In this document: positions 1 through 62,813 of the stretch, piece by piece
Numbering within the stretch: position 1 is the stretch's first letter
Layout: every line of letters begins with the position of its first letter
Virus record (IMG/VR): IMGVR_UViG_3300031566_000003
DNA: 64,000 nucleotides
Source of the DNA: a virus
Direction: 5' to 3' (one strand)
Program-made: the position numbers and the translations under genes
Notes under the pieces: model-generated
The model's database searches: none
Told to the model about the DNA's origin: nothing
The model's input: only the letters and a program-made list of their open reading frames with translations

Positions 1-127
1 TAAAAGGATATTATGAGAGTAATAAAAGGATATTATGAGAGTAATAAAAGGATATTATGAGAGTAATAAAAGGATATTATGAGAGTAATAAAAGGATATT
101 ATGAGAGTAATAAAAGGATATTATGAG
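1..127. repeat. 22-bp tandem repeat TAAAAGGATATTATGAGAGTAA, 5 exact copies plus a 17-nt sixth copy that supplies the SD and ATG of the first gene
   Basis: Exact copies at 1-22, 23-44, 45-66, 67-88 and 89-110, partial copy at 111-127. Each copy contains AAGGA-N5-ATG. The array touches the window edge and may continue upstream. Confidence 0.95.
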
Positions 128-353
128 TAAAAAAGAATCATTAGCAACATTTGAAATTGAAGGGTATCATGCTGTTCTTCTTCATGTTCAAAATGTGTAT
201 GGAGTTGAAAAAGAACTAGATTATTGGTTTTGGGGATTTAAATACACTTCTCAAGTTTTTGAATATTTTTCATATCGAACACTTGAAGAAGCCCAAAAGG
301 TTCATGATGAGTTCATCGAAGCTATAAATCTATATTGGAAAGAAAAAAATTAG
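123..353 (+). CDS. hypothetical small protein (76 aa), aromatic-rich
   Basis: ORF with an AAGGA SD. It ends 10 nt before the radical SAM gene on the same strand. Confidence 0.6.
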   Translation: MSKKESLATFEIEGYHAVLLHVQNVYGVEKELDYWFWGFKYTSQVFEYFSYRTLEEAQKVHDEFIEAINLYWKEKN

Positions 354-1239: not shown

Positions 1240-1270
1240 TAAAAACATAATATCGAGAGTAGAATAAGTT

Positions 1271-1307
1271 GAGGGGGAGCCATTTTTAGGCATCCCCTCT
1301 TTTTTTT
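1271..1307 (+). terminator. intrinsic terminator after the radical SAM gene
   Basis: GAGGGG (1271-1276) pairs with CCCCTC (1294-1299), followed by T8. Confidence 0.75.
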
Positions 1308-1511
1308 CATCTCCGAATTTTCTCTGAAATTTTCATAGCTTAATATGCTTTTAATGTATTAAACAAAGTTTAATTTGCTTAAAATGCTTTATCTGAAATT
1401 TTTCATCATGGAATTAGAAGAGAGTCTCCTAACCCACTTTTACACAAAAAAATTTTGTGCATATATGTAAACAATTCACTTTGTATTTGTTAAAAGTTAG
1501 TTACTAGTTAG

Positions 1512-1558
1512 TTATACCACATTGTAATACAAATTAGTAATACTACAATGTGGTATAA
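1512..1558. repeat. perfect 15-bp inverted repeat TTATACCACATTGTA / TACAATGTGGTATAA with a 17-nt spacer
   Basis: Arms at 1512-1526 and 1544-1558. The right arm is 13/15 identical to the direct copy at 3072-3086. Confidence 0.9.
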
Positions 1559-1711
1559 GTTAGTATTAGTATTTAATGCTATTTGCAAAACAATAAAGCA
1601 TGTTGTATTGTTTAGTTAGTATTATAAGCGCTTGCCATTGTGTTGTAGGTACTGCGCTTGCTTTAGGTGTTATATTTGCTTTATTATACATAGTATGTTA
1701 GCCCCTTGTAA

Positions 1712-1837
1712 TTAAATTTTGTATACGCGCTTTTGCGTATAGTTAGCATAACGTAAACTGTTATAAGTAACCACTGGTTGTTGTTTAGGCATTAACAAAG
1801 TAACAAGCGCAACAAAAAATTTTTTTAAGCTTACCAT
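1712..1837 (-). CDS. hypothetical small hydrophobic protein (41 aa from the ATG at 1837)
   Basis: MVSLKKFFVALVTLLMP...; AAGGGG SD spaced as in the paralog A/B leaders; own promoter at 1929-1957. Confidence 0.4.
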   Translation of the reverse strand: MVSLKKFFVALVTLLMPKQQPVVTYNSLRYANYTQKRVYKI

Positions 1838-1928
1838 TTTAAAACCCCTTGTTTTTATGTTAGCATTAAAACCCATACTATACATACACTGCAATTGCTA
1901 TGCCAAAAATTTTTGTTTTAAGCGCTTT

Positions 1929-1957
1929 ATACTATAGGCACTGCGCTTGCTAAACAA
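1929..1957 (-). promoter_or_regulatory. sigma70-like promoter TTGTTT-17-TAGTAT
   Basis: -35 at 1952-1957 and -10 at 1929-1934 (minus strand), 17-nt spacer. Confidence 0.5.
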
Positions 1958-2070
1958 GCGCTTAAAGGCATCTAATAGCGCCATAGCAAGCTTCTAACTA
2001 TATACCCTATACAAAGCAAGGGCAAAAGCAAAAGCGCTTGTTTTATGTGTGTTGTAATTTATACATACTA

Positions 2071-2108
2071 TGTGCAAAAATGGGCATCTTGTGTGCAAAA
2101 ATGGGCAA
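2071..2108. repeat. direct repeat TGTGCAAAAATGGGCA x2 (22-nt period)
   Basis: Copies at 2071-2086 and 2093-2108. Confidence 0.9.
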
Positions 2109-2135
2109 TAGTGTATAAAATCGGGCTTATGTGTA

Positions 2136-2179
2136 TAAAAAATAAGGTACCATGTTTAATATGCTTTACATGGTACCTT
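2136..2179 (-). terminator. intrinsic terminator downstream of paralog A
   Basis: AAGGTACCATG / CATGGTACCTT 11-bp stem (2169-2179 with 2144-2154), followed on the minus strand by ATTTTTT. Confidence 0.8.
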
Positions 2180-2193
2180 GTTTTATTGTTTGC

Positions 2194-2808
2194 CTATACA
2201 GTAGGCACTTGCACAGTAGGTACTTGCACAGTAGGTACTTGCACAGTAGGCACTGCGCTTGCTTTGTTACTAATACCTAAAACCTTATTGCATACCTTAA
2301 GCACAGTGGGCAATGCACTTGCTTTAAATGCCACAAAGCAATAGGTTTTAAATGGGTATACAACAACATCGTTTACACCGCTAAACAGTGCTTGTGCTTG
2401 TGTGCAAAATAAACCCTGCGCAGTATTGTTAAACGTTATTTTATTTTGCCCTGCAAATACACCGTGATACATTATAACGCCCTTAAAGCTTGCACTGTGC
2501 GCACTGGTTAGGCATAGGCCAAACGTTTGCCTATGCGCTTGTGTATACCCAAAATGCGCGTATTTAGGCAAGCTTGCACTGTTAAGCGCAGTAAACAAGG
2601 TTTGCAGTGTTGGCGTTAACAGGTCTAAAGCGCTTATATTAACATTGTGCGCTTTGTTTACTGCCAATTGTGCTACTTTACCATTTAAAGTAATTGGCGC
2701 GTTAAATGGGTTAACTTTGTTAGCGTATACATGCACTTGCGCAATATTATTGCCTTGCACAGTGCTTGCCCTTGCCCTTATTTTTTTTGGTACTATTGCT
2801 TTACCCAT
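2194..2808 (-). CDS. abundant-protein candidate, paralog A (204 aa), function unknown
   Basis: About 70% identical to 3411-3971 by hand alignment over a roughly 157-aa core. Consensus promoter, long conserved leader and strong terminator. The C-terminus is (PTVQV)n, encoded by a 15-bp tandem repeat. Confidence 0.85.
   Translation of the reverse strand: MGKAIVPKKIRARASTVQGNNIAQVHVYANKVNPFNAPITLNGKVAQLAVNKAHNVNISALDLLTPTLQTLFTALNSASLPKYAHFGYTQAHRQTFGLCLTSAHSASFKGVIMYHGVFAGQNKITFNNTAQGLFCTQAQALFSGVNDVVVYPFKTYCFVAFKASALPTVLKVCNKVLGISNKASAVPTVQVPTVQVPTVQVPTV
2198..2254. repeat. 15-bp tandem repeat ACAGTAGGYACTTGC, about 3.8 copies
   Basis: Units at 2198, 2213, 2228 and 2243. Encodes the PTVQV repeats at the 3' end of paralog A. 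Confidence 0.9.
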
Positions 2809-2969
2809 AATTAAAACCCCTTTATTAAATTGTTAGCTGCGCTTTACAGGTTATTAAGTAGTTACAAGTTTTAGTTTTTAGTTTAGGTGTAAACATGTAT
2901 ATAATGTAATGCAATTGTAATGCCAAAAAAAGCATATAAAACATATTTAATGTATTAAGCATAAAAAAC

Positions 2970-2998
2970 ATTATAAGCTTTTAAAAAAGCAATTGCAA
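2970..2998 (-). promoter_or_regulatory. consensus sigma70-like promoter TTGCAA-17-TATAAT for paralog A
   Basis: -35 at 2993-2998 and -10 at 2970-2975, with A-tracts upstream. Implies a 5' leader of about 155 nt. Confidence 0.7.
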
Positions 2999-3054
2999 GC
3001 AAAAAAAGCAAAAAATAAAATTTAAAAGCTTATTTCTTGTTTTTTTGCCTTATA

Positions 3055-3086
3055 CTACATAGTGGTATGTTACAAAGTGGTATACG
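3055..3086. repeat. two tandem GTGGTAT-containing 16-mers (CTACATAGTGGTATGT, TACAAAGTGGTATACG)
   Basis: Same motif as the 1544-1559 arm. Marks the right edge of the GCGC-rich cassette. Confidence 0.8.
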
Positions 3087-3148
3087 ATCTTTTCCCTCGC
3101 GTCCCGAGAGTAAGGAGCCTTTTTGGTCAGTTAATATGGGAGTCGAGA

Positions 3149-3168
3149 AGATCAAAGATCTTTGATCT
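3149..3168. repeat. perfect 20-bp palindrome AGATCAAAGATCTTTGATCT (three GATC sites, two overlapping GATCTTTGATC iterons)
   Basis: Read directly; the sequence is its own reverse complement. Confidence 0.95.
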
Positions 3169-3223
3169 ACCTAATTCTGTATGATTCTAAAAAAGATTCA
3201 TAGTGAAGATCTAAGACTTAATC

Positions 3224-3289
3224 TCTTTTCTGCGAATGAATGATAAGAAAAGAAATATTGGTCGGTCTATACCGGAGTCGAGAGATGAT
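3224..3289. repeat. 66-nt intergenic element, copy 1
   Basis: 49/66 identical without gaps to 4232-4297. Both end in CGAGAGATGAT. Confidence 0.8.
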
Positions 3290-3297
3290 CAAAGATC
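3287..3297. repeat. iteron GATCAAAGATC
   Basis: Same 11-mer (either orientation) at 3150-3160, 3158-3168, 4529-4539 and 4928-4938. Confidence 0.9.
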
Positions 3298-3354
3298 TTA
3301 AATCCCAGAAGAGAAACTTTCTTTCTATATGGGTATATGGATATAGGGGGGGGG

Positions 3355-3397
3355 ATAAAAAGAAGCACCATGCGGTGAATCTTGCACAGTGCTTTTC
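3355..3397 (-). terminator. intrinsic terminator downstream of paralog B
   Basis: On the minus strand, AAGCACUGUGC pairs with GCAUGGUGCUU (11 bp including G-U pairs), 10-nt loop, then CTTTTTA. Confidence 0.7.
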
Positions 3398-3410
3398 TTA
3401 GGAGGAACTG

Positions 3411-3971
3411 TTACTCTTTAGGATTACCGGCCATGCCAAGCACTTTCTTACAAGTGCTTACGATCACGGGTAGGGCAGTTTCTTTAAAGGCTACAAAGCA
3501 GTAAGTCTTAAAGGGATAGACTACAACATCTTTGGCCCCTTCTAGGACTTTTTGTGCCTGGGTAGCAAACAATCCCTGAGTTGTGTTGTTGAAGGCAATG
3601 CGCATCTGCCCTGCAAAAACTCCATGATACATGACAATACCCTTAAAACTCTTGCTGTGAGCACTGGCTAAACAAAGACCGAAAGTTTGCCTGTGTGCCT
3701 GAGTATACCCATAGCGAGCGTACTTGGGCAGCGCATCTGTGTTAAGTTCTGTGAACAAGGTTTGCAATGTTGGACTCAGCATATCCAGATTCCCAACATT
3801 TACCCTATGCACCTTGTTTACATCCAGATCTACTACCTTGCCGCTCAGTGTAATAGGTGCTGTAAATGGATGCAGCTTATTACTGAAAACATGCACTTCA
3901 GCAATAGGACTAGCTACAACTTTTTCCTTTGCCGCTTTTGCCTCTATCTTCTTAGGCTTTATCTTACCCAT
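3411..3971 (-). CDS. abundant-protein candidate, paralog B (186 aa), function unknown
   Basis: Paralog of 2194-2808. Conserved leader AACCTGTA...TAACA.T...ATAAGGGG.TTTAA..ATG. Own promoter and terminator. Confidence 0.85.
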   Translation of the reverse strand: MGKIKPKKIEAKAAKEKVVASPIAEVHVFSNKLHPFTAPITLSGKVVDLDVNKVHRVNVGNLDMLSPTLQTLFTELNTDALPKYARYGYTQAHRQTFGLCLASAHSKSFKGIVMYHGVFAGQMRIAFNNTTQGLFATQAQKVLEGAKDVVVYPFKTYCFVAFKETALPVIVSTCKKVLGMAGNPKE

Positions 3972-4078
3972 GTTAAATCCCCTTATCTTAGAATGTTAAC
4001 CGCAAGTCTACAGGTTGATAAAAAGTTAAAAAGTTCTGCTGTTAAGTTTTTCATTTCTATTACCCTTTAAGCACTTAA

Positions 4079-4107
4079 AGCATAACACGTGGACATAAGG
4101 AAGTAAA
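4079..4107 (-). promoter_or_regulatory. sigma70-like promoter TTTACT-17-TATGCT for paralog B
   Basis: -35 at 4102-4107 and -10 at 4079-4084. Confidence 0.55.
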
Positions 4108-4231
4108 GCATAAAAAGCATTGATTTAAAAATAGTTTAGATCCTTAAATCTGATATCGACTGTGAAAACCAGGGTTCTGGATCCAAGATCTAGAGTTCTT
4201 GTAAAAGTTAAACTAAATCTTAAATTTAAGT

Positions 4232-4297
4232 TCTTTTCTGAGATAGAATGATAGGAAAAAGACTTTTGTTCCGTATAAGAGAGACTCGAGAGATGAT
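4232..4297. repeat. 66-nt intergenic element, copy 2
   Basis: See 3224-3289. Confidence 0.8.
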
Positions 4298-4365
4298 TTA
4301 GTAAATGGTTGGATCATTATTCGATCTGAGGGAGATCTTCAATCTGAGATCATCGCTGCCCTTAA

Positions 4366-4408
4366 CAAAAAAATGCTGCCGGTAGTCAGGGGTAAAACTA
4401 CCGACAGC
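4366..4408 (-). terminator. strong intrinsic terminator
   Basis: GCUGUCGGUAGU pairs with ACUACCGGCAGC (12 bp; plus-strand coordinates 4397-4408 and 4375-4386), followed by A-T7-G on the minus strand. Confidence 0.8.
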
Positions 4409-4456
4409 GGTGCTTCAAGCTAAGACATGGGTAAAGCATAAACCTAACTTAAAAGC
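4367..4456 (-). ncRNA. candidate sRNA of about 90 nt, bounded by a promoter and a terminator
   Basis: TTGCAA-17-TATGCT promoter (4463-4491) followed about 50 nt later by a 12-bp GC-rich hairpin plus T7 (4366-4408). No ORF or SD in between. Confidence 0.45.
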
Positions 4457-4462
4457 ATAATA

Positions 4463-4491
4463 AGCATAACACATGGATACATCGATTGCAA
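4463..4491 (-). promoter_or_regulatory. sigma70-like promoter TTGCAA-17-TATGCT
   Basis: -35 at 4486-4491, -10 at 4463-4468, A/T-tract upstream. Confidence 0.6.
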
Positions 4492-4528
4492 GCCTTTTTT
4501 TAAATTTTTTTTAGGCCCCATTCCTCCC

Positions 4529-4539
4529 GATCTTTGATC
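4529..4539. repeat. iteron GATCTTTGATC
   Basis: Exact 11-mer, embedded in CCCGATCTTTGATCTTCGATCATGCC. Confidence 0.9.
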
Positions 4540-4927
4540 TTCGATCATGCCTCCCGATTTTTGATCCAATTTTAGACAAAAAAGCATAATCCCAGTCTTG
4601 TCCTTAGAGGACAATTTCATTCTTCCCGACTGATCCAATATTTGAAAAAACCCCTTTTCAAAAGAAGAGAGTGATTACAGGCATTTAACAGAAATTTTGT
4701 GTATTGCCGGTATACCCCCTTGGAACTTGTTTCTAAAAAGAGCAAGTAAAGCACATTAAGCATTTAATGTTTTTCTCTCGTAATCTGTCCTTTAGATCTG
4801 GGATTATCGATCGCTGGTCGATAAACAGAAAGTAAGTCTCTCAGTATAGTTCCAGATTGATCTCAGATCGGGGACTTTCAATAAGGGGCATAAACATTCT
4901 TAGTCAATTTAAGGAGACATGACTTTT

Positions 4928-4938
4928 GATCTTTGATC
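4928..4938. repeat. iteron GATCTTTGATC
   Basis: Exact 11-mer. Confidence 0.9.
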
Positions 4939-5023
4939 GTCACCATAAACATTAGCTTTTCCGTACGGACAGACAGAGTGACATCTCCATTCCCTTCGTC
5001 GATATTGGTTTCTTTTCTTCTTG

Positions 5024-5293
5024 AATTAAGATTTAAGATGGAGAGAATTGAAGAGAAGAAGAGAAGAGAGAATAGAGATTGAGATATACCCTATAACTGT
5101 GACCAATACGATGAATAAGCAGGAGATTAAAGGGGATGTTCTCTTCGGCTTAATAATATCAAAGATATTATTCTAGAGGAATATAGGGAATAAGGAGAAG
5201 GGAATGAAGAGAGGGGGGGATTAGAAATGAGGTCTAACTTCAGATCTTGAAGATATAGAGGACTAGAACAGAGCTTCTGGATAGAGAGAAGAG
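5024..5293. other. ORF-free purine-rich (AG) low-complexity tract on the plus strand
   Basis: Runs such as GGAGAGAATTGAAGAGAAGAAGAGAAGAGAGAATAGAGATTGAGA and GGAGAAGGGAATGAAGAGAGGGGGGGA. No ORF on either strand. Confidence 0.7.
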
Positions 5294-5296
5294 CCT

Positions 5297-6390: not shown

Positions 6391-6627
6391 CTACTTTATA
6401 AACCCATGTTTCTTCTTTAGATGATAGTAGCACAGGCCAGAAGGATCAGGCATAGTTGGATGGCCTATAGTCGCTAACTCTTTCTTATTATAATAGACAA
6501 CTGCTGGCTCGTTAGAAATAGCGGCCATTCTTACCGCACTACAATCATGATCTTTACAGGTTAACCCTAATCTTAAGTTCAGTTGAAATATTGTTTCTCT
6601 TACCTCTTCCACGTTTACCTCTTTCAT
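6391..6627 (-). CDS. hypothetical protein (78 aa)
   Basis: ATGA start/stop overlap with the upstream gene. Confidence 0.6.
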   Translation of the reverse strand: MKEVNVEEVRETIFQLNLRLGLTCKDHDCSAVRMAAISNEPAVVYYNKKELATIGHPTMPDPSGLCYYHLKKKHGFIK

Positions 6628-7040
6628 TTAAGTTCCCTCATCCAGGCTTCCCCTAACTTTACATCTAGGCCAGGCCTCATTACCTGTCTCAGTGTATCCC
6701 AATCTATATGCATAAGCTCTTTTACAAGTTGAGGGAAGAACCCAATCTCTTTCTGTTGAATTGTCGTGATCGTACGGCACTCAGTACAATCGTAAACTAC
6801 AAAGGCATGTTCATTTCCTACGACTAGCACTCCACCAGTATACGGCTCCCCGCAAGAACAGCGTTTCGCTTTAGCAACCTCATCGATTAAAGTTATCAAG
6901 ATCATAAATGTGTTCGTCTCTTTGTGCATTATAAATCGCATACACCCAGGCTTTTGTTTCCCTCCGTCTGTTATTAGTAGTCCCCATTCAATAAGGTCTA
7001 AGCCATCATCAATATTGTATTTTGCACCGTCCCTAAACAT
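6624..7040 (-). CDS. hypothetical Zn-ribbon-like protein, paralog of 18922-19311
   Basis: Shared MF.DG..Y, C.CGG...G.LVVG..FAFV..C..C and IDW blocks. Confidence 0.7.
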   Translation of the reverse strand: MFRDGAKYNIDDGLDLIEWGLLITDGGKQKPGCMRFIMHKETNTFMILITLIDEVAKAKRCSCGEPYTGGVLVVGNEHAFVVYDCTECRTITTIQQKEIGFFPQLVKELMHIDWDTLRQVMRPGLDVKLGEAWMRELK

Positions 7041-7054
7041 TTTTCTCCTTTCTA

Positions 7055-7540
7055 TTACTTAGCTTTTAGTTTACCTACATCACTCTTTAATACATAGGCT
7101 ACTGTCAGCGCACTCGCCAAAAAAGAACCCCAACCAAAATCACAGACTGGCACACCATTATGGTCTTCTGTCCTACCAAGAAAATAATGCCTATCATCTC
7201 CTACCGAAAAAGCTTCTGTAGTAGTAAGCTTATCGTGCCAATCAGTACCGAGCAAGTTAATATCTGCATCTCCATCATACGCACAAACAGCATCTTTTGG
7301 CATATTCTCAGTAAGCCAGTTAGCTATTTTCTTTTGATCAGCAGGGCTATTAATAGCCAACATAGATAACCAACTCCCAAGTTCCACATCATCTGAGAAG
7401 ACCTTGCCAAACTGTTCTGCTGAGGAAATATCCAAATTGGCAATCTCATCATCAATTGCCCCATATTCTTTAGCAAGCTCACGTAGGGTTTTTGCATCAC
7501 GTATTTTTTCTCTCTCTTCGCCTTTAGTTTCTTTTTTCAT
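7055..7540 (-). CDS. hypothetical protein (161 aa)
   Basis: Long ORF in the co-directional block. Confidence 0.65.
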   Translation of the reverse strand: MKKETKGEEREKIRDAKTLRELAKEYGAIDDEIANLDISSAEQFGKVFSDDVELGSWLSMLAINSPADQKKIANWLTENMPKDAVCAYDGDADINLLGTDWHDKLTTTEAFSVGDDRHYFLGRTEDHNGVPVCDFGWGSFLASALTVAYVLKSDVGKLKAK

Positions 7541-9197: not shown

Positions 9198-9226
9198 TTT
9201 TCTATCCTCCTACTATTTTCTATCCT

Positions 9227-9430
9227 TTATGGCCTTACTCCTATTAGTTGAAACACAAAGAAATCATCATCCATCGCATCACGGTTAAGGTATGCTTCAT
9301 CAATTACAACTCGGTGAGTACTTGGATCACGATCCTGAAACCATCCAGGGTCAGGGTGCTTAAGTAAAAGTTCTTTCAATTGTTCATAAGACTGATTATG
9401 AATATTAATCTCTACCATTACCTTTGCCAT
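9227..9430 (-). CDS. hypothetical protein (67 aa)
   Basis: TAATG junction with the upstream gene. Confidence 0.55.
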   Translation of the reverse strand: MAKVMVEINIHNQSYEQLKELLLKHPDPGWFQDRDPSTHRVVIDEAYLNRDAMDDDFFVFQLIGVRP

Positions 9431-51410: not shown

Positions 51411-51761
51411 TTATTTCTTTACAAGTTTTTTCTTCACAGCAACCGGAACTGAAGGTTTCTTTTCTCCCTCCACCCTTTCCCTAAGAACTCGGGATGCCCT
51501 GAACCGAGGAACAGTTTTCGCGGCAATCTTAATCTTCTCTCCAGTCCGGGGATTTCTCCCGACCCTGGCAGCTCGTTCTTCTACTTTGAATTTACCAAAA
51601 TGAGGAATGGTAACATCTTCTCCCGCAGCCAAGGCCGCTGTGATGACATCAAAAAAGGCTTTTCCCATTTGATAAACTCCATGTCTCCGGAGAGGAGGAA
51701 CATCCGGGGACTGCTCGATTCTTAAATAAACTTCGTTTGTGACTTTTGCTAATGAAAACAT
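51411..51761 (-). CDS. HU/IHF-family DNA-binding protein with an atypical N-terminus and a Lys-rich tail
   Basis: FGKFKVEERAARVGRNPRTGEKIKIAAKTVPRFRAS matches the HU arm motif (GFG.F.v..R.AR.GRNP.TGe.i.I......F). Confidence 0.8.
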   Translation of the reverse strand: MFSLAKVTNEVYLRIEQSPDVPPLRRHGVYQMGKAFFDVITAALAAGEDVTIPHFGKFKVEERAARVGRNPRTGEKIKIAAKTVPRFRASRVLRERVEGEKKPSVPVAVKKKLVKK

Positions 51762-52676: not shown

Positions 52677-53273
52677 TCATTTATAAAGAATCTTTATTTC
52701 GTTCACGACGAACATAACAGTTGGAATTTTAAACTCAGCATCAATTATTTTTATGGCATTATCATACAAGCTACGGAATGCATGATTACCCATATCGAGT
52801 TCATTAATGGCGAACATAAGAATTTCAAATTTATCCATGCAAGCAACTAACCGGCCCTCTTTTGAATTATCCTTAGAACATTTCCATAAACGTATATAGC
52901 CATTTCTCACAATAACAGACAGTCCATTAAAGAGCCTCTCTTCAACAACTTTTTTTCGGATATTGTTCAATGCAATTGTGAGTTCAGAATTTTCATGATG
53001 AAGGGGATACAATATATCTCCAGTTTCACTTTCCTCAAGATCATGAAGAAGTGCTCTCTTAACAACTTCAGCTATATTATACAGATCCTCTTCAAGAACC
53101 AAATGGCCGCTGGAAATCCTTTCATTTTCCAGATCAGCAAAAAACATTGCAAATAAGGCTATGAAATAAGAATGTTCTGCAACAGAATACGGTCTAATGT
53201 GAGGAGTATTTGCACATCTATCAATGAAGGCCATCCTTTTTGTTCTTTTTAAAAAATCCAAAAGATTATTCAT
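52677..53273 (-). CDS. HD-domain 5'-deoxynucleotidase (YfbR-like)
   Basis: SVAEHS and LLHDLEESETGDILYP (cf. YfbR SEHS and HDasEvlTGDlptP), plus a later acidic CMDKFE block. Confidence 0.7.
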   Translation of the reverse strand: MNNLLDFLKRTKRMAFIDRCANTPHIRPYSVAEHSYFIALFAMFFADLENERISSGHLVLEEDLYNIAEVVKRALLHDLEESETGDILYPLHHENSELTIALNNIRKKVVEERLFNGLSVIVRNGYIRLWKCSKDNSKEGRLVACMDKFEILMFAINELDMGNHAFRSLYDNAIKIIDAEFKIPTVMFVVNEIKILYK

Positions 53274-58487: not shown

Positions 58488-59714
58488 TTAATGATGGAAA
58501 ATATATTCATCTATTTTAGCTATTTTTTCAGGACCAAGAAAAGAAAAATGATCATGAATCATAGCTTTTGCAATAATTACTTCAGGAGAAATTAAATTCT
58601 CCTTCGTTCCTTTCCTGACCAAATATTCAAGACAAGAAATAAAAATATCGGCTGCCACAACCTTATCTAAACACATGAACGCCAAGGATAAATCCCCTTT
58701 CTTAAGAGCTCTATAGGATAGAGCCAAGAAAATTGCATCAATTAGAAAATTAAAGAACAGAGTCTCCCTTGTGTAGTTTTCCACAATCTCTTCTGAGTCA
58801 CCATTTCTTATCGCCTGTTCAAGAGCCATAAATTTCTTAAGCTCTATGTCTAAAATTTGATAATTTGAATAATTCATACCAAGATCTTTATATCTTCTGA
58901 AATTTAGCCAAAAAGGCTTAGGAGCAACGTAATCATATACACTGAAGGGCCTTTTTTCAAGATCCTCGGCTAAAATTCGCGATGTTATTGGGCTATCTGT
59001 ATAAAAATGGAGAGAATTAATTAAATGAATCTGCTTACCTAAAGGTCTTCCGAGACACATAGTGAGCGCTTCAAGTATAACACTGAATTGTACTACATTC
59101 GCATTAAACAATCCCAAGTGGATATCGTTTGATCTGTTATAGACAGTAAGCTGAAGAGCAGATTCGCGAATCAAAAAATGAAGAGCAAAATTACATGGTC
59201 TATCAATAGTAGCCATCCCAATATTGTCAAAAGCAGGGTTCCAAAGTGTAACAAGCGCATGGCGAGTATCAGGATCAATATCAAGATAGTCAAAACAATT
59301 CTTTAACTGATCGGGGGGATAACCAACTACGGATCGAAGAGTATAAACCGCATCCCGGTAAGCCCCAAAATCACGAATTCGCTTTCCATACGGAGCATGA
59401 AATTCTTTTTCTCCATCTGAATACTTTTCTATATCTTTCAGATAATAAGAAATCCACTCTACCGACGACCCACCTGAAAGAATCCAAATAGCTTCCATTA
59501 CCTGAAAATAAGGATTAATCCATCGGCCAGGACAAGTTAAAAATCTTTTTCTAGGATCTGAAAGAATAAGAACTACAGGTCTGACTTCTTTCGTTTCCAT
59601 TCCTCTTGAAACAACTATGTCTCCAAATTGAACAAGACTCTTGACTGTTTGTAAATAACAATCATTCACGCCATCAGCTTCTATTATCCCGTAGTTGGTA
59701 AGATCAGCATCCAT
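58488..59714 (-). CDS. divergent thymidylate synthase (ThyA)-fold enzyme with a C-terminal extension, possibly a pyrimidine hydroxymethylase
   Basis: TLWNP, DRPCN (catalytic Cys context), YNRSNDIHLGLFNAN (cf. YQRS.D..LG.PFNI) and SLHFY. About 130 extra C-terminal residues. Confidence 0.6.
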   Translation of the reverse strand: MDADLTNYGIIEADGVNDCYLQTVKSLVQFGDIVVSRGMETKEVRPVVLILSDPRKRFLTCPGRWINPYFQVMEAIWILSGGSSVEWISYYLKDIEKYSDGEKEFHAPYGKRIRDFGAYRDAVYTLRSVVGYPPDQLKNCFDYLDIDPDTRHALVTLWNPAFDNIGMATIDRPCNFALHFLIRESALQLTVYNRSNDIHLGLFNANVVQFSVILEALTMCLGRPLGKQIHLINSLHFYTDSPITSRILAEDLEKRPFSVYDYVAPKPFWLNFRRYKDLGMNYSNYQILDIELKKFMALEQAIRNGDSEEIVENYTRETLFFNFLIDAIFLALSYRALKKGDLSLAFMCLDKVVAADIFISCLEYLVRKGTKENLISPEVIIAKAMIHDHFSFLGPEKIAKIDEYIFHH

Positions 59715-60857: not shown

Positions 60858-61473
60858 TTTTTTTCACCATTAATGCTACTTGCGTAAGATAATTACGAAC
60901 CGGATACTCATAAGGAATACCTAACTTTTTAAGAAGAGAATATACATTGATGCCTGTAGCTTCAAGACTAGGAAGGCCTCCTTTTTTGCAAGGAGGATTG
61001 CTTCTATTAGGACATTTGCCACACTTGTCACAGTGGCCTTGAATAAAAGTGGCAACAGTAAAGCCTCTCTTTTTATTCACTAATTCAGCTTTCTTCATTA
61101 AATGCGTTAGCTTCCGAGCACTACTCGCCTCTACTCCCTTCAACTGCCTTCCTAATCTAACCTGAAGTTTAATGTGAGCAAAGTCTCCCCACTCTTTTTG
61201 ATACCACCATCTCCTTCTTCCATCATTTTTAAACACATAAAGGTAGGCTTCATCAAAAGAATCAAAATATTCCCTTGAAGAATCTATGGTTTTAAATTGT
61301 GGATAAGTGAGAGGAAGCAAAGGAGGGCAAAGAATTCCGCGATTATATAATCCGCAATTAGTACACAGAATTCTGGCATAAGCATCAATCACCAAATCCT
61401 TAGGATCCATAAGCACAATTTGATCCAAAAAAGGAGGAAAGTTTTTAGTTTCTGTATAAGCTAATTTTTTCAT
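60847..61473 (-). CDS. DUF2284-like metal-binding protein
   Basis: CTNCGLYNRGILCPP and GHCDKCGKCPNRSNPPC Cys motifs. Confidence 0.55.
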   Translation of the reverse strand: MKKLAYTETKNFPPFLDQIVLMDPKDLVIDAYARILCTNCGLYNRGILCPPLLPLTYPQFKTIDSSREYFDSFDEAYLYVFKNDGRRRWWYQKEWGDFAHIKLQVRLGRQLKGVEASSARKLTHLMKKAELVNKKRGFTVATFIQGHCDKCGKCPNRSNPPCKKGGLPSLEATGINVYSLLKKLGIPYEYPVRNYLTQVALMVKKNDS

Positions 61474-62813
61474 TTTCCTATTACCCTCAGGATAACATCA
61501 ACACAGCGTTCTGAATTGAAGAGTCGATAGATAAATCTCTTTTGCCATTGATGGAATTGCAATAGCTTTGAATGTGTGAGTTTATCATTAAAGAACTGAA
61601 TTTTTTCATCTAGCTCTTTCGCATCATTGACAATAAAATATTTACTCATATACCGCCTGATTCCATGCATCTCTCCTGGGACTAACAAAATGCAACCACT
61701 GAGAATCACTTCAAACCAGCGATGAACAATCCATCCCATTTCATAATATCTGGGCCTTGCAATAGATAAACAAGTTCTTGCTTGATTATATGTCTTCCAT
61801 ACATCCCCTTGCGGAATAGGGCCATGCATCTCTGTATTACCTATATACTTTTCAAAATTTTCGTAGCCTTCTGCCCTTCTAGACATCCCTCCTCCAAAAA
61901 GATCTAATCTATTCTTCTTCTCCAATGGAGTAAAGAACTTTCTAAAAGTTTGTCTTCTTTCTGAATCGTTACCGATGTATGCAAGACGATATATAGTCTT
62001 TGGGCATATATTATACTGACCAAATTGAAAGCTATAAGGTGGGAAAAATGGCAAAATTCTTATTCTAGGATTAAGACTCTTGATTCTATCTAGAGCTTCA
62101 CCAGGAATTTGTAATAGCCAATAAGCATTATCAGCAATAGTTTTGAATTGATCAACTGAAAAGATTTTATCTGCTCCAGAATATCTGAAATATTTCTTGG
62201 GAAGATTATCTTTTTCACTTGTTCTAAGAGTCCTCAATTCATAATCCCACAAGAAAACAGGGGTATGAGTTTTTGCATAATGCAAATTGATCAAATAAAA
62301 CATCATGTTTGAAAAGAAAAAGGAAGGAAAAGCATTCGTTACTACCACGTCTGCTTTAGGAAATTCCATTCCATAGCGAGTCTCATAGTTTTCCAAACAG
62401 TCTTCTATCCAATCAGCAATAGGCTTATATGGAGTAGGAAGTTTTTTCCATTCTCCACTATAGTCTTTCATATCAGGATGAAAACCTTCAAACTTCTTAC
62501 TAGATTTCCCAATAAAAGAAATCTTACATCCTCTAGCTAGAAACTCTTTCAGAACAGGAATTTCTAAAAGGTTTTCAGTAACATTTCTATTGGTGATAGG
62601 ATGTGAAAGACAATAGTTGAATCCATAAGCTACTCTGGTTCCCAAACAATGATTAAGAAGATCTGGTAAAACATTAGCGTGTATTTTACCTGATGAAAGT
62701 TTTGAATTAACCAATAATTCAAGATTATATCTATCCATAAACTTATAATCTTGAACTTTCTTTCTCGTAAGAAAATCTCTGGCGCTATCCTTATCTAGAA
62801 AAACTTCTCTCAT
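61470..62813 (-). CDS. putative glycosyltransferase (CgeB / GT1-like C-terminal domain)
   Basis: The C-terminal block CLSIARPRYYEMGWIVHRWFEVILSGCILLV resembles the CgeB-type R.FE..a.G motif. Motif-level only. Confidence 0.45.
   Translation of the reverse strand: MREVFLDKDSARDFLTRKKVQDYKFMDRYNLELLVNSKLSSGKIHANVLPDLLNHCLGTRVAYGFNYCLSHPITNRNVTENLLEIPVLKEFLARGCKISFIGKSSKKFEGFHPDMKDYSGEWKKLPTPYKPIADWIEDCLENYETRYGMEFPKADVVVTNAFPSFFFSNMMFYLINLHYAKTHTPVFLWDYELRTLRTSEKDNLPKKYFRYSGADKIFSVDQFKTIADNAYWLLQIPGEALDRIKSLNPRIRILPFFPPYSFQFGQYNICPKTIYRLAYIGNDSERRQTFRKFFTPLEKKNRLDLFGGGMSRRAEGYENFEKYIGNTEMHGPIPQGDVWKTYNQARTCLSIARPRYYEMGWIVHRWFEVILSGCILLVPGEMHGIRRYMSKYFIVNDAKELDEKIQFFNDKLTHSKLLQFHQWQKRFIYRLFNSERCVDVILRVIGK

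Follow-up and report, generated by a model that had tools for sequence, protein, structure and literature searches.

The window, a 64,000-nt stretch of the genome of an uncultivated phage (IMG/VR record IMGVR_UViG_3300031566_000003), contains a gene-poor stretch extending from 1240 to 5296, longer than the zone (3061–5296) delimited in a preliminary description of the sequence. Two paralogous genes lie on the minus strand of this stretch: gene A (2194–2808), encoding a protein of 204 aa, and gene B (3411–3971), encoding a protein of 186 aa, with 66–67% identity between them. The AlphaFold2 model of the gene B protein (pLDDT 84.7) had no structural neighbour. Other genes of the phage code for an HU-like protein, sigma-like factors and a thymidylate-synthase-like enzyme. 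Outside gene B, the zone had been described as lacking credible ORFs, which is true for ORFs of normal size, but promoter-like elements, terminators and a single sRNA-like unit are nevertheless present in it. Followed along the minus strand, which is the transcribed one, it can be read as a succession of small expression cassettes, each of which ends in an intrinsic terminator: the end of a long operon gives way to a C-rich tract and, beyond this, to GATC arrays together with σ70-like promoters, genes A and B and a short unit resembling an sRNA. The intrinsic terminator of gene B (3350–3390, minus strand; −16.8 kcal/mol, z = −3.9) has a U-run after the fold. The sRNA-like unit, U3 (4368–4456, minus strand), was detected in the terminator scan and consists of two hairpins, the second being a 13-bp stem followed by seven U; its 96-nt fold has a predicted energy of −37.2 kcal/mol (z = −6.9), and it gave no match in Rfam.

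By our own reading, the promoter inferred for U3 (4463–4512, minus strand) consists of an A-tract, TTGCAA, a 17-bp spacer and TGtTATGCT (8 of 12 consensus positions, with the TG of an extended −10 in addition), and that inferred for gene B (4079–4107, minus strand) consists of TTTACT, a 17-bp spacer and the same TGtTATGCT (8 of 12 plus TG); both lie below the threshold of the promoter scan, which was set at 9 of 12 letters. The scan itself identified a promoter-like site for gene A (TTGCAA, 17 bp, TATAAT; 10 of 12; 2970–2998, minus strand). Promoter-like sites are not enriched in the zone as a whole (18, versus 15 ± 3.8 in shuffled sequences). The CTTTACTTC string of the gene B promoter recurs in three paralogous promoter modules (repeat family D2) of a related phage, L012. 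A further motif, TTATGCTT on the minus strand (AAGCATAA on the plus strand), occurs in clusters at 2929–2975, 4069–4122, 4431–4470, 4582 and 4746–4765, with a spacing of 9–10 bp and overlapping the inferred −10 elements; seven of its nine copies in the window fall within 2929–4765 (p ~6e-11). A decayed ribosome-binding site without an ORF lies near 4640–4665.

Immediately beyond the final gene of the long leftward operon, the minus strand of 5000–5290 is C-rich and G-poor, with 24–35% C and 6–12% G in 100-nt windows, versus 15.5% and 22%, respectively, for that strand genome-wide; these windows are the most C-rich and G-poor of all minus-transcribed DNA. The tract had been noted as purine-rich, an appearance that it has only from the other strand. 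It is a candidate loading site for Rho-dependent termination. Equivalent tracts are present in L012 at 9219–9318 (46% C, 10% G) and 6700–6799, and a C-rich tract also marks the left end of the module found in other relatives (see below).

The zone contains 28 GATC sites, 26 of which lie outside gene B, in 1,675 bp (one per 64 bp). The remaining 62.3 kb of the window contains 216 (one per 289 bp), close to the value of about one per 301 bp predicted from base composition, and no other 2.2-kb segment has more than 16. Dinucleotide shuffles of the zone gave 10.1 ± 2.8 sites, with a maximum of 20–21 in 1,000–2,000 shuffles. From these counts and shuffles, the excess is about 4.5-fold relative to the genome and 2.6-fold relative to local composition, and elsewhere in the genome GATC is neither avoided nor enriched. 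The site count, density and compositional expectation of the preliminary description were thus reproduced, and neither GATC nor the 11-mer discussed below is as frequent in the rest of the window as in the zone. The clusters have a further regularity that had gone unreported: GATC-N3-GATC, corresponding to a 7-bp spacing, occurs eight times in the zone, once in the remainder of the window and 0.05 times per shuffled sequence. Five of the eight sites have TTT/AAA between their two GATCs. If each array is taken as one event, we still count about 18 GATC events in 1,675 bp, versus 6–10 expected. Another 16.6 kb of this genome lacks the feature.

The 11-mer reported to occur five times, directly or as its complement, does so, at 3150, 3157 (previously given as 3158), 3287, 4529 and 4928; with up to one mismatch allowed, eight of its nine matches in the window are in the zone, whereas shuffles of the whole window yield 2.7 matches. 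The strongest single site is the perfect 20-bp palindrome AGATCAAAGATCTTTGATCT at 3149–3168 (repeat finder D10/I13), the existence of which is confirmed here and which comprises three GATC at 7-bp spacing. A near-copy of its 18-mer core, GATCAAAGATCTTAAATC, with 16 of 18 letters matching, lies at 3287–3304 (D13, D16, I13) and is preceded by GGAGTCGAGAGAT, just as the first copy is preceded by GGAGTCGAGAA. The 11-mer GATCCAAGATC (4180–4190) is located about 110 bp upstream of the inferred transcription start of gene B, and four GATC with spacings of 11, 11 and 14 bp (4312–4351) lie directly downstream of the U3 terminator. At 4519–4566, two copies of CAT(T/G)CCTCCCGAT(C/T)TTTGATC are found 27 bp apart (repeat finder D6), the first of which runs on as GATCTTTGATCTTCGATC, giving three GATC in direct heptads; this array is centred some 80 bp upstream of the point at which transcription of U3 is inferred to start. 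Further sites are present at 4795, 4809, 4859 and 4866 (array 4795–4869), including the palindromic 11-mer GATCTCAGATC, and at 4918–4938, where CATGACTTTTGATCTTTGATC consists of one degenerate heptad followed by two exact ones (D6, D9). The minus strand also carries a repeated 81-nt spacer module, copy 1 of which (3209–3289; repeat family D2, D13) is 73% identical to copy 2 (4217–4297; repeat finder), with a partial third copy at 3123–3148. The GATC sites of copy 2 are at positions non-homologous to those of copy 1, which could mean that the density of sites matters more than their placement.

L012, a 136.9-kb phage, has the same gene order as the window, with a protein identity of only 25–41%. 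Its non-coding gaps contain 25 GATC, versus 5.8 in shuffles, together with all six of its GATC-N3-GATC sites, in which the intervening letters are TTA/TAA in every case (6/6). It carries GATCTTAGATCTAAGATC twice, with the architecture of the window palindrome, and, in the same zone, four 22-bp tandem repeats each containing AAGATCGGTTG (D1/D4). Two paralogous promoters of L012 (TTTACT, 17 bp, TATACT or TACACT) have arrays centred about 74 and 78 bp upstream of their inferred starts, and a promoter with a 12/12 consensus match has one centred 210 bp upstream. The comparison was extended to 20 further metagenome loci with an A/B-family gene. At all loci for which about 600 bp or more preceded that gene, GATC 11-mers were present in this upstream sequence, in most cases at conserved offsets, typically as three 11-mers about 76 and 64 bp apart, the first conserved one being the GATCTCAGATC also found in the window. 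The A/B-family proteins concerned are only 22–48% identical, and the arrays are kept at the same place in at least eight lineages. The conserved module of these relatives, of about 300 nt, is non-coding and ends 300–470 bp before the A/B start codon, and there are two separate GATC modules per genome. In an alignment of 11 sequences, 19 of the 24 GATC columns were invariant, versus 27 of the 241 other columns (Fisher p = 2e-12). A 14-mer, AGATCTTAGATCTC, was identical in nearly all of the 11 sequences; L012 keeps its first 12 letters, AGATCTTAGATC, and differs in the last two. An nhmmer comparison of the window zone with the relatives' module was not significant (best E = 0.27 and 0.54, both hits being in the zone and on the right strand).

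Because the clusters recur at the corresponding location in distant relatives, docking sites, rather than an origin, are the most likely explanation, and we tentatively propose that the GATC arrays are operator-like sites for a DNA-binding protein controlling the nearby promoters. Each binding site would have a GATC core, with successive sites following one another every 7 bp in direct or inverted orientation and an 18–20-bp palindrome containing three GATC as the fullest form. The arrays would occupy untranscribed or weakly transcribed spacers between minus-strand cassettes, such that the end of the long operon would be followed by the C-rich tract, probably serving for Rho loading, then by GATC arrays, a σ70-like promoter, a gene or short RNA, an intrinsic terminator and the next array. 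The bound protein might raise or lower transcription from promoters about 65–200 bp downstream, those of genes A and B and of the short RNA U3, which would make the arrays comparable to operator or upstream-activator arrays. That the inter-GATC letters are specific to each genome, and AGATCTTAGATCTC nearly invariant, points to a reader recognising more than GATC. Such a reader could be a phage-encoded protein, possibly the A/B protein itself, or a host reader of methylated GATC; invariant GATC cores would be equally required by a methylation-dependent host factor. The suggestion that the 11-mer is the operator of a phage regulator, made in the preliminary description as an equal alternative, fits better than an origin, given the location of the arrays in promoter/terminator spacers, the inter-GATC letters, AGATCTTAGATCTC and the similar arrays near a helix-turn-helix gene in unrelated phages (see below), but Pfam scans of about 110 window ORFs revealed no ribbon-helix-helix or other obvious binder match. 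The variation of the array-to-promoter distance in the window, from about −65 to about −195, also counts against an operator, as do the lack of promoter enrichment in the zone, the 8-of-12 matches of the gene B and U3 promoters, the non-homologous GATC positions in the 81-nt copies and the non-significant nhmmer comparison.

The likening of the zone to oriC- and plasmid-type origins or to a SeqA/Dam-controlled region fared less well. If it were an origin or replication-control region, its GATC repeats would be initiator iterons or methylation-sensitive sites, as in the known example of Escherichia coli oriC. Extensive non-coding regions that are rich in repeats and shared by a group of phages are typical of origins, and the 22-bp tandem repeats with AAGATCGGTTG in L012 also favour this reading. 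Strong promoters nearby could prime replication, as they do at the R-loop origins of T4. The segment 2850–3050 is AT-rich and among the least stable 60-bp windows, whereas the GATC stretches themselves are not unusually AT-rich. Clustering and 7-bp spacing of GATC are known at an origin, oriR of phage P1 (spacings 7, 10, 11 and 23 bp); there, however, the sites lie beside repA, with 19-bp iterons and DnaA boxes, and none of these companions is present here. In the origin of Vibrio cholerae chromosome 2, as in the zone, sites of 11–12 bp, each with a GATC, occur several times over in a non-coding control region; the initiator RctB needs the GATC in order to bind, and it binds these 11- and 12-mers efficiently only when they are methylated (PMC2865523). 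Those sites, unlike the ones described here, are in tandem with a phase of about 22 bp and adjoin the initiator gene, a DnaA box and an IHF site. No RctB-like or other initiator-like gene was found adjoining the zone, no DnaA box with up to one mismatch occurs in 3061–5296 (window-wide counts being at chance) and the window's ORFs yielded no adenine methyltransferase. Transcription converges in the zone and the cumulative GC skew, proposed earlier as a check, reaches its maximum there, which is terminus-like rather than origin-like. About 65 kb separate the zone from the genes for a DnaB-type helicase, a DnaC/IstB-like loader and a UvsW-like helicase. The arrays extend over some 1.9 kb and are broken by a gene and terminators, instead of forming a single compact iteron block. 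As most of these tests failed, we consider an origin unlikely.

The P1 packaging site provides another precedent. Its seven TGATCA/G hexamers form two clusters that flank the cut and are separated by about 100 bp; the GATC spacings are 7, 12 and 15 bp, a 96-bp gap and then 12 and 11 bp, and the site includes GATCATTGATC (PMC10028697). GATC-N3-GATC occurs only twice in the 44.8 kb of P1 examined, in oriR and in pac. Clustering at 7–15 bp and rarity of this arrangement elsewhere are shared with our phage, in which two arrays (3150–3167 and 3287–3297) are about 133 bp apart. The GATC letters are themselves the invariant part of the relatives' module, and their unremarkable frequency outside the zone is compatible with a Dam-positive host. 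A pac-type site, or another site of GATC methylation by a host or phage Dam read by a terminase or a SeqA-like protein, is nonetheless improbable: a packaging site is expected to be unique, whereas the zone has five or more arrays within 1.9 kb and the relatives have two modules per genome; P1 pac lies inside the terminase gene, and no terminase gene was found in the 84 kb examined around the zone; no GATC methyltransferase was found; and genome-specific inter-GATC letters and a nearly invariant 14-mer would be superfluous for Dam or SeqA. Still less probable is a role as small hairpins in RNA or extruded single-stranded DNA (processing signals, protein-binding stem-loops or hairpin promoters). 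GATC is self-pairing, so AGATC-NNN-GATCT can fold into a 5-bp stem with a 3-nt loop, and the early promoters of phage N4, which are hairpins with 3-nt loops, offer a precedent. Symmetry is kept in the relatives' middle 11-mer (GATCTAAGATC, GATCTAGGATC, GATCCAGGATC), via a T..G intermediate, and the adjoining inverted repeat TCTTAA...TTAAGA becomes TCTTGG...CCAAGA in L034, but a dimeric protein on a DNA palindrome would equally give symmetric changes. The folding z-scores of the window's GATC spacers were not significant (−1.2 to +1.4; −1.1 to −1.2 for 81-nt copy 1), RNAalifold on the relatives' module gave −10.7 kcal/mol with a covariation term of −0.72 and both-sided change in one of 21 pairs, and there were no Rfam matches. 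GATCTTTGATC, the 11-mer of the window itself, is not palindromic over 11 bp, and the arrays are downstream of terminators. The zone is made of diverged tandem units (A/B 67%, 81-nt spacers 73%, the decayed ribosome-binding site), some of its 11-mers are paralogous copies and GATC positions differ between the two spacer copies, as they might if the arrays had no function and had been left behind by repeated tandem duplication and by slippage of heptamers in a cassette region that is decaying and evolving fast. Conservation of the arrays across lineages with such divergent proteins, of GATC columns far beyond their surroundings, and the excess that persists with one event per array make this highly improbable, the least probable of the readings considered.

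The proposed operator-like arrays resemble those of two ribbon-helix-helix proteins, the ω repressor of pSM19035, which binds 7-bp WATCACW heptads, and ParG of TP228, which binds ACTC boxes with AT-rich spacers. Shared features are a short core, a period of 7–8 bp, at least two contiguous units in direct and inverted orientations, and several arrays per replicon, located upstream of or over promoters. The core here is instead GATC, the window has no detected ribbon-helix-helix protein, the arrays are short (2–3 units) and lie inside a larger conserved module, and the element is found in a lytic-looking 136-kb phage rather than a plasmid. They also differ from the P1 sites in being many rather than one. 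Two IMG/VR viral contigs, L023 and L027 (GC content 48–49%), contain a small helix-turn-helix gene that is surrounded by dense heptad arrays of the CTAAGATCTTAG type, which also overlap its promoter; their GATCTTAGATC and GATCTAAGATC heptads form clusters of 4–5 within 0.5 kb and are intergenic, with σ70-like promoters. The helix-turn-helix protein has no homolog in the window and neither contig has an A/B-family gene, so these arrays may be likened to those of the zone by analogy, not by demonstrated homology. In the host-takeover or early regions of large virulent phages such as SPO1, strong host-type promoters and terminators drive small genes, and the HU-like protein, sigma-like factors and thymidylate-synthase-like enzyme of our phage are a further parallel. 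We know of no GATC arrays described in such regions, and the zone differs from that of SPO1 in having no detectable protein homology, but it resembles it in its many strong host-type promoters and terminators, its small genes and its organisation as a gene-poor block.

The zone at 3061-5296 contains 28 GATC sites, 26 of them outside gene B (3411-3971, minus strand). This corresponds to 1 site per 64 bp, whereas the other 62.3 kb of the window has a GATC every 289 bp, close to the rate predicted from composition (about 1 per 301 bp). The counts given in the preliminary description are correct. As the plus strand of the zone is G-richer than the remaining window, dinucleotide-preserving shuffles were also performed on the zone itself; they yielded 10.1 ± 2.8 sites, and never more than 21 in 2,000 trials. 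The 7-bp spacing of the sites is a more telling regularity than their number. The zone contains eight GATC-N3-GATC, as opposed to one in the other 62 kb and an average of 0.05 per shuffle; a further 16.6 kb of the same genome, reached via flanking loci, has none. Three-unit arrays are present at 3150-3167 (inverted) and 4529-4546 (direct), and the GATC sites form four clusters, at 3086-3294, 4139-4348, 4529-4632 and 4795-4935, in the spacers between transcription units. Four of the five positions originally listed for the 11-mer are correct (3150, 3287, 4529 and 4928), the fifth lying at 3157 rather than 3158, and the 20-bp palindrome at 3149-3168 is perfect. The exact 20-mer and 18-mer palindromes are both absent from IMG/VR. 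The original observation is confirmed, and is stronger than was known when it was made.

The gene-poor character of the region was also borne out, except that the stretch concerned is larger (1240-5296); it holds only the tandem paralogs A (2194-2808) and B, both on the minus strand, and a few tiny ORFs. Two small ORFs, at 4444-4638 (minus strand) and 3240-3401 (plus strand), were rejected as genes, having neither a family match nor conservation; the zone contains no tRNA and has no credible match in Rfam. Plus-strand genes stop at a terminator at 1273-1308 and all genes from 5297 to 22.7 kb lie on the minus strand, resulting in convergent transcription. Read on the minus strand, the zone resembles a series of tandem cassettes that have diverged. 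Gene A is preceded by a promoter-like site at 2998-2970 (minus strand, 10 of 12 consensus letters). Putative minus-strand promoters were also assigned to gene B (a -35 element, 17 bp and TGtTATGCT) and to U3, an sRNA-like unit (up to position 4512; an A-tract, TTGCAA, 17 bp and TGtTATGCT), both being our own readings, with 8 of 12 consensus letters plus an extended -10 TG, below the threshold of the scan. The predicted transcription starts lie near 2963, 4072 and 4456. The motif AAGCATAA (TTATGCTT on the transcribed strand), seven of the nine window copies of which are in the zone, overlaps the predicted -10 elements. Genes A and B share the ribosome-binding stretch AAGGGG(T/A)TTT with a 41-aa ORF, and a decayed copy lacking an ORF is present near 4640-4665. 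The end of gene B is marked by a hairpin and a U-run (z = -3.9). U3 itself (4368-4456, minus strand) consists of two hairpins, the second with a 13-bp stem and seven U; folded as a 96-nt RNA it reaches -37.2 kcal/mol (z = -6.9), has no match in Rfam and is a candidate phage small RNA.

The GATC-rich DNA is neither an RNA element nor a gene. Six windows of 141-146 nt from the clusters folded no better than shuffles (z from -1.2 to +1.4), and RNAalifold on the block conserved among the relatives recovered only trivial GATC-GATC pairings (-10.7 kcal/mol, covariation term -0.72); the GATC spacers thus show neither the folding beyond shuffles nor the covariation of a structured RNA, and have no Rfam match. 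The tract described earlier as purine-rich is, on the transcribed strand, a C-rich, G-poor tract (5000-5290; 24-35% C and 6-12% G, versus 15.5% and 22% overall), directly 3' of the last gene of the long operon. It has the C-rich, G-poor composition typical of a Rho loading site, over at least 80 nt and past an operon end, and is therefore a candidate Rho-dependent terminator. Palindromes of the type TAC(C/T)ACAnTGT(G/A)GTA lie just upstream of promoters, at 1515-1556 and 3061-3090 in the window, and also between the GATC block and the A/B-family gene in the metagenome loci L032-L046; they may constitute another operator.

Protein B appeared to be an orphan in a word-indexed search and had no match in tblastn, and no close relatives of either protein B or the radical-SAM protein were found in IMG/VR. 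A full profile search nevertheless retrieved four remote homologs, and a profile built from these identified more, including P0032, encoded by the distant relative phage L012. The 136,883-bp L012 contig has the gene order of the window phage: small genes form a long operon, beyond which come non-coding gaps, the A/B homolog and, in convergent orientation, a 5'-3' exonuclease. The proteins of the two phages are only 25-41% identical. The non-coding gaps of L012 contain 25 GATC sites, versus 5.8 in shuffles, and all six GATC-N3-GATC of this contig. Its fullest site, GATCTTAGATCTAAGATC, present in two copies, is a perfect palindrome of 18 bp that includes three GATC; it and GATCAAAGATCTTTGATC of the window are of one design, with TTA/TAA in place of AAA/TTT. 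C-rich tracts follow operon ends in L012 (9219-9318, with 46% C and 10% G; 6700-6799, with 41% and 9%), and an analogous tract occurs at the left end of the block conserved in the relatives. In both phages, the mRNA of which is otherwise G-rich, these C-rich, G-poor tracts at the ends of long operons are candidate Rho-dependent terminators. The non-coding zone of L012 also contains four iteron-like 22-bp tandem repeats (6406-6499), each with AAGATCGGTTG; a fifth copy stands apart from these and overlaps with the 11-mer at 7534.

Scanning metagenomes with the P0032 subgroup yielded 20 more loci. Wherever the sequence upstream of the A/B-family gene extended to at least about 600 bp, GATC-N3-GATC 11-mers were found; loci with little or no upstream sequence had none, as expected. 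The offsets of the 11-mers are conserved in most of the loci that have them, typically as a set of three with intervals of about 76 and 64 bp, and a second group is located about 1.4-2 kb upstream where the contig extends that far. These 11-mers lie in a module of about 300 aligned nt, with no recurring ORF, ending 300-470 bp before the start codon. Of its 24 GATC columns, 19 are invariant across 11 sequences; among the other well-occupied columns, this holds for 27 of 241 (Fisher p = 2e-12). Nearly all 11 sequences share an identical 14-mer, AGATCTTAGATCTC, of which L012 retains AGATCTTAGATC but not the last two letters, and the middle 11-mer of the module changes symmetrically (GATCTAAGATC, GATCTAGGATC, GATCCAGGATC). 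The two best matches of the module profile in the window (nhmmer) are in the zone and on the correct strand. Their E values (0.27 and 0.54) are not significant, sequence homology between the zone and the module was not retained on this basis, and our claim is therefore one of conserved architecture and position. Two other anchors were abandoned: radical-SAM homologs (L005-L009) had neither shared gene order nor GATC clusters, and contigs found with a 221-aa neighbour (L019 and L020) had no A/B gene and no arrays within 10 kb. Four further contigs (L001-L004) are variants of the window phage, too similar (99.6-99.98% identical) to be informative about constraint.

The conserved signature is a GATC core repeated every 7 bp, in triplets that are either palindromic or direct. 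The retention of core, 7-bp phasing and position at 22-48% protein identity rules out chance and makes a by-product of duplication unlikely. We consider it probable that the clusters are protein-binding arrays acting at the DNA level. The letters between GATCs are uniform within one genome and different from genome to genome which, together with the near-invariant 14-mer, points to a sequence-specific protein rather than a reader of GATC alone. The preliminary description had mentioned an operator as an alternative to an origin. This is now the best-supported reading; that the arrays are operator-type sites in a regulatory hub, exerting transcriptional control of promoters, is a possibility we favour tentatively, at a little short of an even chance. 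In L012, two arrays precede the predicted starts of two paralogous promoters by about 74 and 78 bp, and a third precedes a perfect consensus promoter by 210 bp. The window array at 4529-4546 is about 80 bp upstream of the predicted U3 start; the other arrays are farther from their promoters, with centres at -110 to -195 for B and A. Several of the promoters to which these distances refer are our own 8/12 readings.

Phased arrays of short cores are a known kind of element. Heptad operators of the ω/ParG type have a short core with a 7-8-bp period, at least two contiguous units and arrays upstream of or over promoters, bound by a small ribbon-helix-helix (RHH) repressor. The eight GATC-N3-GATC of the zone resemble them in period, in having at least two contiguous units and in occurring as direct and inverted repeats. 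No Pfam match to RHH, Omega or ParG was obtained for the 96 window ORFs scanned as sets or for those scanned singly. A palindrome-pattern search of IMG/VR identified two unrelated viral contigs with very dense CTAAGATCTTAG-type heptad arrays around a small helix-turn-helix gene (L023, 4371-4910; L027, 5440-6270), one array overlapping the promoter of that gene. This layout is that of a classic autoregulated repressor with operator arrays and serves only as an analogy for the window phage, in which the helix-turn-helix protein has no homolog. The helix-turn-helix coding sequence itself contains near-copies of the motif, encoding (A/S)K(M/I)L(D/N).

A T4-like middle promoter was considered and rejected. 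T4 middle promoters combine a MotA box, (a/t)(a/t)(a/t)TGCTT(t/c)A, with a -10 element 11-13 bp downstream, and the phage encodes MotA and AsiA. On the transcribed strand, TTATGCTTTA is letter-for-letter the consensus of this box, and is found at 2929-2975, 4069-4122, 4431-4470 and 4746-4765, with a spacing of 9-10 bp. It fits the box, but in our reading has no TAnnnT at the right distance. The window ORFs gave no Pfam match to MotA or AsiA, no fold match was obtained in the PDB, and the only fold match to a MotA is a weak one in BFVD (E = 0.23).

The adjacent A/B-family protein is a candidate binder of the arrays, because of its lysine-rich N-terminal tail and its constant adjacency to them. 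A and B, both with this lysine-rich N-terminus, belong to a small, phage-only family. The 3' end of gene A contains a 15-bp repeat, the copy number of which varies by sample, giving a protein of 199 or 204 aa. The confident AlphaFold2 model of B obtained from ten sequences (pLDDT 84.7, pTM 0.80; an earlier model from three sequences, with a pLDDT of 45, was useless) had no significant neighbour in the PDB (best E = 0.16) or BFVD (best E = 0.013, TM at most 0.38), and a profile search of PDB sequences with protein B found no match to solved structures. If this protein is the binder, a new DNA-binding fold would be defined; if the sites are only the operator array of an ordinary repressor, they add modestly to the known kinds. 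The GATC-core form, the conserved module and the link to a family of unknown fold were not described in the literature searched, in which the 11-mers retrieved only primers and unrelated text. Regulatory non-coding DNA in uncultivated phages is hardly ever characterised, and these arrays provide a handle for finding the regulator, for asking whether these phages read adenine methylation and for annotating the early control region in related metagenomic genomes.

The preliminary description also proposed a replication origin, a reading that we now regard as unlikely and that the available tests do not support. No DnaA box (TTATCCACA, up to one mismatch) is present in 3061-5296, and the 21 matches in the window as a whole are close to the 18.3 ± 4.5 expected. 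The cumulative GC skew has a maximum, not an origin-type minimum, at about 2-4 kb, and the genes converge there, contrary to what an origin would show. The argument is a weak one, since the skew follows gene direction across the whole window. The neighbouring genes have no Pfam or PHROG match, no recognised initiator (Rep) gene is adjacent, and the DnaB-type helicase, DnaC/IstB-like loader and UvsW-like helicase are about 65 kb distant. As regards an AT-rich unwinding element beside the repeats, the GATC stretches themselves have 38% GC; the 25 least stable 60-bp windows include the segment at 2850-3050, which is not unique in this respect and coincides in part with the gene A promoter. Instead of tandem 17-22-bp iterons in helical phase, the window offers only scattered 11-mers and 7-bp heptads, but the corresponding zone of L012 does contain four 22-bp tandem repeats with GATC. 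GATC-containing 11- and 12-mers also have a precedent in the origin of Vibrio cholerae chromosome 2, where the initiator binds them efficiently only when they are methylated (PMC2865523), which could favour either an origin or a methylation-dependent site. The same applies to phage P1, in 44.8 kb of which GATC-N3-GATC occurs just twice, in the pac site and in the plasmid origin.

A packaging (pac-type) or other GATC-methylation-dependent site is, in our view, quite unlikely. The P1 pac site comprises seven TGATCA/G hexamers (PMC10028697). Sites of this type have two clusters of such hexamers on either side of a cleavage region, lie in or beside the terminase gene and are cleaved under the control of Dam methylation. 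In the zone, about 133 bp separate the arrays at 3150-3167 and 3287-3297, and several further arrays are present. No terminase gene was found in the window or the flanks examined, and no adenine methyltransferase or Dam-like gene was found among the window ORFs. Quite improbable as well is an epigenetic timer common to a clade of large uncultivated phages, in which a methylation-state reader would bind the arrays differently on injected DNA (fully methylated or unmethylated) and on newly replicated, hemimethylated DNA. This reader could be a SeqA-like factor of the host or the A/B protein of the phage itself. Early cassette promoters, and perhaps replication or packaging, would then be switched in step with the start of replication. 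Such a timer predicts invariant GATC letters beside variable flanks, as seen.

Contigs of 136,198, 136,624 and 136,898 bp from three independent assemblies place the size of the phage at about 136 kb. No DNA similarity to the phage or its zone was found among 50,697 deposited phage genomes, and the window polymerase shares no more than 28% identity with any of theirs. The window (37% GC) is densely coded, with genes for a DnaE-type polymerase, SbcCD, RecA, a sigma-like factor, an HU-like protein, a thymidylate-synthase-like enzyme and glycosyltransferases. The thymidylate-synthase-like enzyme (408 aa), a YfbR/HD 5'-deoxynucleotidase, several glycosyltransferases and the HU-like protein (jointly, window 58488-59714, 52677-53273, 61470-62813 and 51411-51761; contig L010, 5352-6563) form a set that suggests a hypermodified pyrimidine in the phage DNA, which, if present, would matter to any GATC-reading protein. 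The very start of the window (1-127) is a perfect 22-bp tandem repeat of TAAAAGGATATTATGAGAGTAA in 5.8 copies, with the unit length of classical 22-bp iterons. Only about 2.5 copies are present in a 136-kb contig of the same phage, and three other contigs end at window positions 98-202, indicating that it varies in number and breaks assemblies.
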